Source of the DNA: Escherichia coli O157:H7
Lineage (GTDB): Bacteria; Pseudomonadota; Gammaproteobacteria; Enterobacterales; Enterobacteriaceae
Length of the DNA: 64,000 nucleotides
Direction: 5' to 3' (one strand)
Assembly (NCBI RefSeq): GCF_013167455.1
Contig: NZ_CP038328.1
Made by a program: the position numbers. Below, piece after piece: positions 42,901-45,900 of the stretch (positions within the stretch are counted from its first letter, which is position 1; every line of letters starts with the position of its first letter).

Positions 42901-45900
42901 GGTCTTCGCCATCCCCCACACCATGGCCCATCGCCCGGCTCATGTCATACATCACGCTGGTAGCAACCGCTTTAACGCGGGTATCCATCGCCGCGTCGTT
43001 CAGCGCCATGCCGCCCCAGCCACAAATACCGAGCAGCCCGATACGGTTGCGATCTACCTCTTTTTGCAGCCCTAAGAAATCCACCGCCGCGCTGAAATCT
43101 TCAGTGTTGATATCCGGTGAGGCGACATTTCGCGGATAGCCGCCGCTTTCCCCGGTGTAAGAAGGATCGAACGCCAGGGTAACAAACCCTCGTTCCGCCA
43201 GCGTCTGCGCATACAAGCCGCTGGATTGCTCTTTCACCGCGCCAAATGGCCCACTGACCGCAATCGCCGCCAGCTTGCGATCGCCACGGTCTTTAGGCAG
43301 GTAAAGATCGCCCACTAAGGTGATGCCATATCGGTTCGGGAACGAGACTTTACGGTGATCGACTTTCTGGCTCTCGGCGAACGTTTTATCCCATTTATCG
43401 GTCATGGACACAGGGGCATTAGGATTGGTTGAATCAGCATAACTCATTGTCGTGACTCCACTTAATGATGCGAAAAGCAGCATGACCGGCATCGCGGTTT
43501 TTAGCGTTCGGGTGAAGGCTTTCATAAAAATCCCCATAAAAAACAACAGAGAGATACAGGTTTCCGACGGACAACGCTGCGGTGCTTTACTTTGATGGGG
43601 TCATTATAGTGAGCAGAATTAGTGCTGATTAGGGGGCGATTAATGCTAAGATTAATACCATATTGTTATAAATTAATGCTGAGATTGCCGGCATGAAGGG
43701 GAATGTTTCAATGGCAAAAAGGGAGAACTACAACGAGCTATACCTGTTTATGCAGGTGGTGCGGGAAGGCAGCTTTACCGCAGCGGCTAAGCGGCTGGGT
43801 CTTGCTCAGTCAGGAGTCAGCCGTTCTGTTCGCGAGCTTGAAGAAAGGCTGGGCGTCCAGCTGCTGGTGCGCACCACGCGTAAACTGTCGCTGACGCAAG
43901 CAGGCGAGCAGCTCTACCAGAAGACGGCATCTGGATTTGAAATGTTAGATCTTGGGCTTGCCACGCTGGCGCACTATCGAGAGACGCCCTCCGGCACGGT
44001 GCGTATCAATGCCAGCCAGCACGCGATTGATAAATGCCTGCTGCCAAAGCTGGCGGTATTTAAACAGCGATATCCTGATATCCAGCTTGAACTGATAAAT
44101 GAGAGCCGGTTCGTCGATATCATCGAGGAAAGATTCGATGCAGGTGTCCGCCTGGGGCCTGAAGTCAGCCAGGGCATGGTCGCGGTACGCATCACGCCCG
44201 ATATGGAGATGGCAATTGTGGGGACTCCGGAACATTTTCGTCGCTATGGTTTTCCGCAAACCCCGGCGGATTTAAAGGCGCATCCCTGTATCGCCTATCA
44301 GTTTGCCGACGGCAGCGTATACCAGTGGGAACTCAATCAGGATGATAAAAAAATCACTCATCAACCCGAAGGACAATGGGCCTTTTCCGACAGCTATATG
44401 GAAGCAGAAGCCGCCCGGCTGGGCCTCGGGTTGGCCTATGTTCCTGTTGAACTGGTCGCGGATGATTTAGAACACGGTAAGCTTATCAGAGTGTTGCAGC
44501 GTTACAGCCTGCGAATGGAGGGATTGTTTCTCTATTACCCTCATCGCAACGTCTCCCCCGCTCTGCGGATGGTCATTGATACATTGAAAATCTGAACGTT
44601 AACAACGACCGACTCTTCACTGTGCAATATTGTGTCAGGTAGTCACTCTGCGTTCAATTCCAGGGGCCGCTTTGAGCGAGAAAGAGCGGACTTATCTGTA
44701 CAAGGGGACTATCCAGCAATGGAGATCATCCAAAAGAAAAAACCACCTGGCTCCCCTCGACAACCTTAATCCGGGCATTTAGCCTCAATCAACATTTTCA
44801 TATCTGTCAGGTTACTTCATTATGAAAACCGATCAATACCGTTGTTTTTGTTGCAACAGTAGAATACGCGTATTTATCCCTCCATTTCTATTAATAACGG
44901 CAATAAACTGTTCATTTCACTGATATTTAAAATATGCATCCTTTTCAAGCTGTTCAGCGGCGTAAGAAAACGTATTAAATATGAATTCGACGATTTAACC
45001 ATTTCTGTCTGATTGGTAATCATCTGTGATTAATGCTGGTCTATTGATTACTCCAGCATTAACCGCTTAGGGATGTATTCTTCCTGTTGATATACAGCCC
45101 TCGAAAAAGAGAGAAAATAAAACTGTGTCCAATATTACTCTACCACTCCAGACCGAAGCATCGGTAGAATTAGCAGAACGACTGGTACAATAGATTGGGA
45201 TAGCGTCATTTGTCAGGTATTCCATTGCCTGACAAATGACAATTTTGAGTCAATAGACGTGCTTCTTGATCATGTCTTAAAAATTATACCATGAGCCTTA
45301 TGAAGCATCATTTTTACTGACTGGTGTTAACTTTGCTATCATATAAACTCTGTTCTTAAAAAACGCGCCCAGAATTTTATATGATTTCCCTTGTTTTTCT
45401 GCCTGTAAAGAAATTTCTTTTTCAGTGCTGTTAATGGTTGAACCGACGGCAGTAATCGTTTTGGCGACGCTACTGAATGATAATAAAGACAGTGCAACCA
45501 CAACAATTAAAGAACAGATAGTATTCACGCTAATTTCCCTGACAATTGAGAGGATGAGTTTTATATATAAAGACATTAAACATGAGTCATGTTTACTTCC
45601 TGTGAAAAATAATCTTTCTGTAATTAAACCTTCATCTCCTTCGGGGTGAGCAATACATAATGTATCTTGCTATGAAAAACACAGGGATATATAAATATTC
45701 CTTCTGACCTATTTAATAAAACGTGAATGTAAAAGTTATTCTTCAGTTTGCAGATGCAGTGGGTCTGATGGTAATTTCGGTTGTATCAACGCTTTCGGGA
45801 GATTCAATAATATGCCTTACAGCACGGGCAATATCCGCGGGTTGAAGTGCAACAGAACGGTAGGCGTCCATTGCCTTCATGGTTTCCACATGGGTAATGG

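Follow-up and report, generated by a model that had tools for sequence, protein, structure and literature searches.

Within the 64,000 nucleotides of the Escherichia coli O157:H7 chromosome that were analysed (the window), the conserved-looking block located between a LysR gene and the gene for a 92-aa protein is very probably the non-functional remnant of another ykgR-ykgM-ykgO locus, in which a truncated ykgR is joined to the tail and the terminator of ykgO. Its present form would result from the loss of the promoter, the ribosome-binding site and the first ~11 codons of ykgR, from one old deletion between short CTTT..AAG repeats that would have removed ~684 bp (with the Zur box, the whole of ykgM and ykgO up to codon 35), and from the loss of the terminator U-run; the order of these events is one that we infer. 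An earlier sequence-only reading had described the region as a second copy of ykgR/ykgM/ykgO with missing parts, which stands, and had suspected a hidden functional element in it, which does not. The biological weight of this result is small, and its use lies in removing a false lead, i.e. that what looked like a conserved non-coding block is coding sequence of a known small protein, YkgR.

The genes ykgM and ykgO (rpmE2 and rpmJ2) form a Zur-repressed operon that encodes zinc-free paralogues of L31 and L36, and ykgR is b4671 (UniProt YKGR_ECOLI; NCBIfam NF041474; Pfam PF28062). In strain PV15-279, ykgR (33 aa) is followed by 363 nt of spacer in which the Zur box lies, by the genes for type B L31 (ykgM) and type B L36 (ykgO), and by a terminator. 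The product YkgR, a membrane protein of 33 aa, is recognised post-translationally by SRP (PMC7549839). Among full-length YkgR sequences, the C-terminal VEYAYLFLHFY is invariant in five Escherichia lineages (E. coli, E. albertii and three others). The first copy of the locus in the window (copy 1) presents two differences with respect to PV15-279, namely the T5->T4 change in ykgR and the insertion of ISEc8 (Table 1). The former generates a 22-aa ORF at 23020-23088, which had been reported previously with its start at 23021; the ORF does exist, although it begins one base earlier and is a by-product of the ykgR frameshift, and the gene is marked as 'frameshifted' by PGAP/RefSeq in an identical genome. 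The remaining elements of copy 1 are recognisable: a promoter and a ribosome-binding site 5' of ykgR (AGCGAGGAAGTACCAATG), a Zur box (GGTTATGTTATAACATAACA, 25904-25923) that is the sole match in the window within 3 mismatches, and a terminator (26360-26440) with a folding energy of -29.8 kcal/mol (z -4.8) and with UUUUCC after it.

Table 1. Features of the two copies of the ykgR-ykgM-ykgO locus (window coordinates).
Feature	Position	Strand	Description	Basis
ykgR, copy 1 (true gene)	23020..23120	+	Inactivated by T5->T4 frameshift at 23072-23075	Comparison with intact gene of PV15-279
Copy 1 counterpart of block A	23053..23168	+	ykgR codons 12-33 and 47 nt	Alignment, BLASTN
ISEc8	23321-25762		Between ykgR and Zur box; 8-bp target duplication CAATCACT	
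Copy 1 counterpart of block B	26302..26453	+	Last 11 ykgO codons, two-hairpin terminator, flank	Alignment, BLASTN, folding
33-aa Cys-rich ORF (MKTDQYRCFCCNSR...)	44822..44923	+	Judged a chance ORF; ykgR' frame is +1 relative to it	
ykgR' pseudogene fragment	44826..44894	+	ykgR codons 12-33 and stop	PGAP, NF041474
Copy of ~47 nt 3' of ykgR stop	44895..44942	+	45/47 positions match copy 1	
6-1-6 inverted repeat ATATTTAAAATAT	44923-44935		Within the post-stop stretch	
Deletion scar	44938..44948	.	Post-ykgR sequence joined to ykgO codon 36	Alignments
ykgO (rpmJ2, type B L36) remnant	44943..44978	+	Last 11 codons and stop	Alignment
Rest of block B	44979..45094	+	Homologue of post-ykgO 26338-26453	Alignment, BLASTN
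Decayed ykgO terminator hairpin	45030..45062	+	10-bp stem kept, U-run lost	Folding

The second copy (copy 2) is located 21,773 bp downstream of copy 1, in the same orientation, and its homology to the latter falls into two blocks. Block A spans ykgR from codon 12 to codon 33 and its stop, and extends 47 nt further; local alignment of 44826-44942 with 23053-23168 gave 105 identities in 117 positions (89.7%) with one 1-nt gap, and BLASTN an E-value of 4e-39 to 5e-40. Block B corresponds to the last 11 ykgO codons and the two-hairpin terminator, and 44943-45094 matches 26302-26453 with ~76% identity over 157-158 columns that include several short gaps (BLASTN E = 3e-22). Both blocks directly abut in copy 2 and are separated in copy 1 by 3133 nt, 2450 of which are the ISEc8 insertion and its target duplication. 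The ~88% identity to sequence upstream of rpmE2 claimed from the first inspection is therefore real, as is the similarity to the rpmJ2 end and its terminator directly after it, although for the latter the figure of ~80% is replaced by the measured 76%; the copy 1 segment does lie upstream of the insertion sequence, which nevertheless begins 152 nt past the block and does not immediately adjoin it. The absence of the Zur box, rpmE2 and most of rpmJ2 from the second locus, also part of that reading, is borne out by these alignments and by the Zur-box scan. Window position x corresponds to 364706-x in NZ_AP018488.1, and the region 44600-45300 is 100% identical in many O157:H7 chromosomes.

Judged from its sequence, copy 2 is a pseudogene of ykgR and not a second ykgR gene. 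Its homology to copy 1 starts at ykgR codon ~12, and it has no counterpart of the promoter, of the ribosome-binding site or of the ~11 initial codons with the MKENK... N-terminus; a TGA is found directly 5' of the fragment and in frame with it, there is no in-frame ATG, GTG or TTG from which it could start, and a promoter/terminator scan of 44400-44825 gave no promoter-like site on the + strand. The 22-aa translation (KPINTVVFVATVEYAYLSLHFY) reaches 43.1 bits on NF041474, above the curated cut-off of 40 bits, with a partial coverage of the profile (positions 14-33 of 33). In O157:H7, PGAP labels this fragment as 'small membrane protein YkgR; incomplete; missing N-terminus', flagging it also as 'incomplete; partial in the middle of a contig', and the 'missing N-terminus' label is likewise applied in 12 other E. 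coli variants, i.e. in every one examined. The core of copy 2 is thus already known as a ykgR pseudogene in the RefSeq/PGAP annotation; the ykgO tail and the scar next to it are unannotated, and they show that a whole ykgR-ykgMO unit was formerly present at this position. Over the retained codons, the least-changed copy 2 alleles (e.g. that of L009) differ from the real ykgR by a single amino-acid change (Pro instead of Leu, at the first of these codons) and by five synonymous changes (ATC/ATT, GTT/GTC, ATA/ATT, GCG/GCC and TTC/TTT), a near-identity which indicates that copy 2 encoded YkgR for most of its history. The O157 copy carries in addition I->T, I->T and F->S changes, so that three hydrophobic residues of the membrane helix are now T, T and S, while N->I and F->L are found in other variants. 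With copy 1 frameshifted and copy 2 truncated, this O157:H7 lineage has no intact ykgR.

With respect to a copy 1 without the insertion sequence, coordinate arithmetic indicates that ~684 bp are missing from copy 2, comprising the Zur-box spacer, the complete ykgM and codons 1-35 of the 46 in ykgO. The junction is a CTTT..AAG microhomology, and the scar is polymorphic, with a 9-nt indel (TTTTCCTGC) between CTTTTC repeats. What is left of ykgO reads FQAVQRRKKTY*, as compared with the 11 residues encoded at 26302-26337 by the real gene, and these last 11 codons are the sole recognisable remainder of rpmE2/rpmJ2 coding sequence in copy 2, none of which is intact. No Zur box was found in copy 2 when the window was scanned allowing up to 3 mismatches. 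As for the terminator, the region 45000-45075 still folds at -21 kcal/mol (z -2.9), and the stem of the hairpin is followed by CCGCUUAGG instead of a U-run; the hairpin was left uncalled in the terminator scan. Block B is homologous to the end of the ykgM-ykgO operon, but the elements that define the operon are gone, and copy 2 is able neither to respond to zinc nor to encode a ribosomal protein.

Copy 2 is carried by ~913 of 5426 complete E. coli genomes, 611 of them with both flanks. Its setting is paoD - MFS - alpha/beta hydrolase - LysR - relic - 92-aa protein - SDR - LysR - tRNA-Thr - proA, and the segment between the two copies includes ykgM, ykgO, ecpRABCDE, ykgJ, yagU, paoABCD and the MFS/hydrolase/LysR module. 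LysR/hydrolase pairs are present beside each copy; these were considered as part of one duplication, which was discarded given that the proteins share only 34-43% identity and the arrangement is opposite. A different organisation was found in another Escherichia lineage, represented by CP089930.1 ('E69', a GTDB representative) and its relatives, where the U-region is followed by an intact ykgR, the same scar, block B, the 92-aa gene, SDR, LysR and proA, with none of the 21.8 kb that separate the copies and with an internal TAG in the ykgO remnant. This single-copy arrangement, including the same scar junction, is also present in exactly three of the 5426 E. coli genomes (6EVA, wlxctx60 and GF4-3) and in one further assembly (L036). 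Since the scar is common to E. coli and the E69 lineage, it predates the split of these lineages, the flanks of which are ~82-89% identical (10-18% different). Contigs were reached through homologues of PaoD, of the 92-aa protein and of the LysR next to it, and none had an intact ykgR-ykgM-ykgO unit at the second position; they showed the relic in its truncated state, the single-copy organisation or, in L038, an arrangement unrelated to either.

Within E. coli, copy 2 is no more conserved than the unrelated spacer adjacent to it. Among 13 variants, the mean pairwise divergence was 0.046 for block A, 0.033 for block B and 0.038 for an unrelated 230-nt spacer upstream, and indels of 9 and 18 nt segregate in copy 2. 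Neither is there a sign in copy 2 of purifying selection on the hydrophobic C-terminal helix, given the I->T, F->S, N->I and F->L variants and the spacer-like diversity. The conserved appearance of the block could have two reasons. One is that the ykgR part would have been protein-coding until fairly recently, because an intact version with the same scar survives in another Escherichia lineage and, rarely, in E. coli. The other derives from an incongruence in the similarity of its parts: in the 47 nt that follow the stop codon, copy 2 matches E. coli copy 1 at 45 positions and E69 at 35, whereas in block B its identity is 0.745 to E. coli copy 1 and 0.85 to E69 (on the same scale, E. coli and L005 copy 1 give 0.786, and E. 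coli and E. albertii 0.686). This pattern, along with derived states (CGGCAATAAACTGTTCA) that are common to E. coli copies 1 and 2 and absent from all other lineages, suggests that block A has been homogenised between E. coli copies or haplotypes; this would have occurred within E. coli, with the real ykgR, via homologous recombination or gene conversion, while block B, severed by the deletion, would have diverged freely. In being recognisable by homology only, drifting at a neutral rate and being flagged by PGAP, the copy 2 fragment resembles other short annotated E. coli gene relics, including the frameshifted ykgR of copy 1 in this same genome. It differs from them in that part of it appears to have been kept similar to a live gene by recombination, and in being unusually old, given that its deletion scar also occurs in another Escherichia lineage, with diverged flanks.

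Other explanations for the block can be weighed against these data. That the similarity between the copies arose by chance, or corresponds to repetitive or mobile DNA dispersed in the genome (a REP sequence or the end of an insertion sequence, for instance), has practically no likelihood left. The identities are far above background, as the E-values of both blocks indicate, and the two blocks are collinear with ykgR and ykgO. In BLASTN searches there was no third copy in the 64-kb window, and the block matches between 1 and 4 places per E. coli genome (median 1), which does not correspond to an element repeated genome-wide. Besides, a degenerate pattern of the YkgR C-terminus gave six hits in 100,044 species genomes, exclusively in Escherichia DNA; two of the six were in tiny contigs filed under other genera and were 97-98% identical to E. 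coli copy 1. There is somewhat more to be said for a role of the block in cis, as RNA or DNA, be it as an element in the LysR 3'-UTR or a small RNA of that gene, as a terminator for the 92-aa gene or as a protein-binding site at ATATTTAAAATAT, even if this too seems improbable. The 6-1-6 inverted repeat and its flank persist in the two copies and throughout the Escherichia lineages examined; the 13-mer is found in the window only at 23149-23161 and 44923-44935, and the core GTGATATTTAA(A/T)ATAT is maintained in every Escherichia lineage aligned. The near-identity of the 47 post-stop nucleotides between copies, part of which are kept across the genus, means that an element downstream of ykgR could be functional in both, and the 45030-45062 hairpin still folds, as described above. 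However, a scan of 44400-45500 with Rfam 15 covariance models gave no match up to E = 1, the folding of block A does not depart from that of shuffled sequences (z ~0), and the hairpin is followed by no U-run and is not called as a terminator, a far stronger one at 45205-45240 being closer to the convergent 92-aa gene. Added to this is a diversity in the block equal to that of the neighbouring spacer, so that the unknown functional element hinted at earlier gives way to known ykgR coding sequence that in copy 2 is under no greater conservation than its surroundings.

The 33-aa Cys-rich ORF, which had been pointed out in the sequence-only reading and is indeed present in the ORF listing, starts one base ahead of the TGA that closes the ykgR' frame. 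It might be regarded as a real small protein that overprints the ykgR remnant, i.e. a young gene born on a pseudogene and translated from transcripts that read through from LysR, a proposal to which we would give only a very slim chance. The scan showed no terminator-like site between the LysR stop codon and the ORF, which makes it probable, on sequence grounds, that the copy 2 block is transcribed via read-through from the upstream LysR gene. The ORF is open in 11 of the 13 E. coli variants, and 8 of its 12 variable sites, a small sample, fall on its third codon positions, which could hint at coding constraint; nevertheless, these sites coincide with second codon positions of the ykgR helix, which are rich in T, and this accounts for the excess. 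Against a coding function, the ORF has neither a Shine-Dalgarno sequence nor a promoter, it matches no NCBIfam family, and two of its alleles were looked up among ~15 billion predicted proteins and both were absent. Five of the changes are non-synonymous, the stop codon is lost in the other two variants (L019 and L022), and the ATG is missing in the single-copy and E69 lineages. That this frame is likewise open in the real ykgR follows simply from sequence likeness. A programmed frameshift joining the ATG at 44822 to the ykgR' frame via the A4 or T5 runs was also considered, and no variant supports it. The two small ORFs in different frames, to which significance had been attached, are thus by-products, the 22-aa one of a frameshifted ykgR and the 33-aa one of an out-of-frame reading of its remnant. 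For the relic of a second ykgR-ykgM-ykgO locus, which remains the preferred interpretation, we infer no present function beyond that of being a 117-bp direct repeat 21.8 kb away from its partner.

That last property connects the relic with the single-copy genomes. The two direct repeats of 117 bp, ~90-95% identical, flank the 21.8-kb segment with the ecp pilus, pao and ykgMO genes, and genomes with exactly the predicted single-repeat product exist, in both respects as in segments known to be lost by recombination between direct repeats. Recombination between these two repeats could remove the ykgMO-ecp-pao segment, and the loss of the 21.8 kb by this route would explain the single-copy form. 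It would also be explained if this form were ancestral and the segment had been inserted later at ykgR codon ~11, an alternative that sets this case apart from those segments. The codons of the single-copy ykgR are mixed, with the derived ATC and ATA as in copy 2 and GCC, TTT and CAG as in copy 1, a pattern that does not fit a simple recent crossover between the copies of today and led us to discard that version of the event. On a bolder and improbable reading, the ykgMO-ecp-pao segment of 21.8 kb would be a cassette that natural Escherichia populations lose recurrently by virtue of the two ykgR repeats. These repeats offer a tidy natural example of repeat-mediated loss or gain of a chromosomal segment.

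The ykgR gene of the true ykgR-ykgM-ykgO locus (copy 1, 23020-23120) carries a T5 to T4 frameshift in the T-run at 23072-23075, and RefSeq labels it 'frameshifted' in an identical genome. As the second copy, a relic with a ykgO tail at 44826-45094, is truncated, an intact ykgR is missing from the O157:H7 lineage of the window. The T5 run is retained in ykgR of other O157:H7 strains, e.g. PV15-279. In the annotation of PV15-279, paoB, which lies in the segment between the two copies, is given as frameshifted (NZ_AP018488.1 326926-327868; approximately 36838-37780 of the window).

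In some genomes a single intact ykgR is fused to the scar of copy 2, the old deletion junction leading into codon 36 of ykgO, without the 21.8 kb that hold ykgMO, ecp and pao. This form, the counterpart of window 23053...45094, was seen in loci L012-L017, L028, L029 and L036; its carriers are the E69 Escherichia lineage and 3 of 5426 E. coli genomes, along with a single assembly that bears the label E. fergusonii and shares 96% identity with the window. A different arrangement is found in Escherichia sp. E1V33 (L008, 9826-10400), where a match to window 47518-47605, beside tRNA-Thr, follows ykgR and its downstream hairpin of the copy 1 type within around 250 nt, so that everything from ykgM through the second LysR gene is absent there.

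Features at and around the two ykgR copies (window positions)
Feature	Position	Strand	Remarks
Inverted repeat ATATTTAAAATAT	23149-23161 and 44923-44935		6-1-6; about 30 nt 3' of the ykgR stop
ISEc8 (IS66 family)	23321-25762		2442 bp; between ykgR and the Zur box/ykgM
ISEc8 target duplication CAATCACT	23313-23320 and 25763-25770		8 bp
LysR regulator	43693-44595	+	Adjoins the copy 2 relic; module continues with 41120-43546
Strong hairpin, then AATTTTGAGT	45205-45240	+	15 bp; terminator-like
Hypothetical protein	45298-45576	-	92 aa; signal-like N-terminus

The inverted repeat downstream of ykgR does not differ between the two copies, and its core is kept in all the Escherichia lineages aligned, while the sequence immediately preceding it differs among species. 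It may act as a binding site, or as an element at the 3' end of ykgR. The ISEc8 insertion at ykgR/ykgM is common to 294 complete genomes; the Zur box still adjoins ykgM.

Upstream of the relic, the LysR regulator has homologues in Kluyvera, Enterobacter, Raoultella and Klebsiella that are 85-88% identical at the protein level, with no intermediate Escherichia clusters among its homologues, a pattern suggesting horizontal mobility of the MFS/hydrolase/LysR module. Downstream, past the relic but short of the 3' end of the convergent gene encoding the 92-aa protein, lies the terminator-like hairpin; several E. coli variants have a different 3' arm, so its stem is not conserved. Homologues of the 92-aa protein were found almost only in Escherichia, with called starts that differ among them (62-92 aa), and a 76-aa version is named 'multiple stress resistance protein BhsA' by one source.
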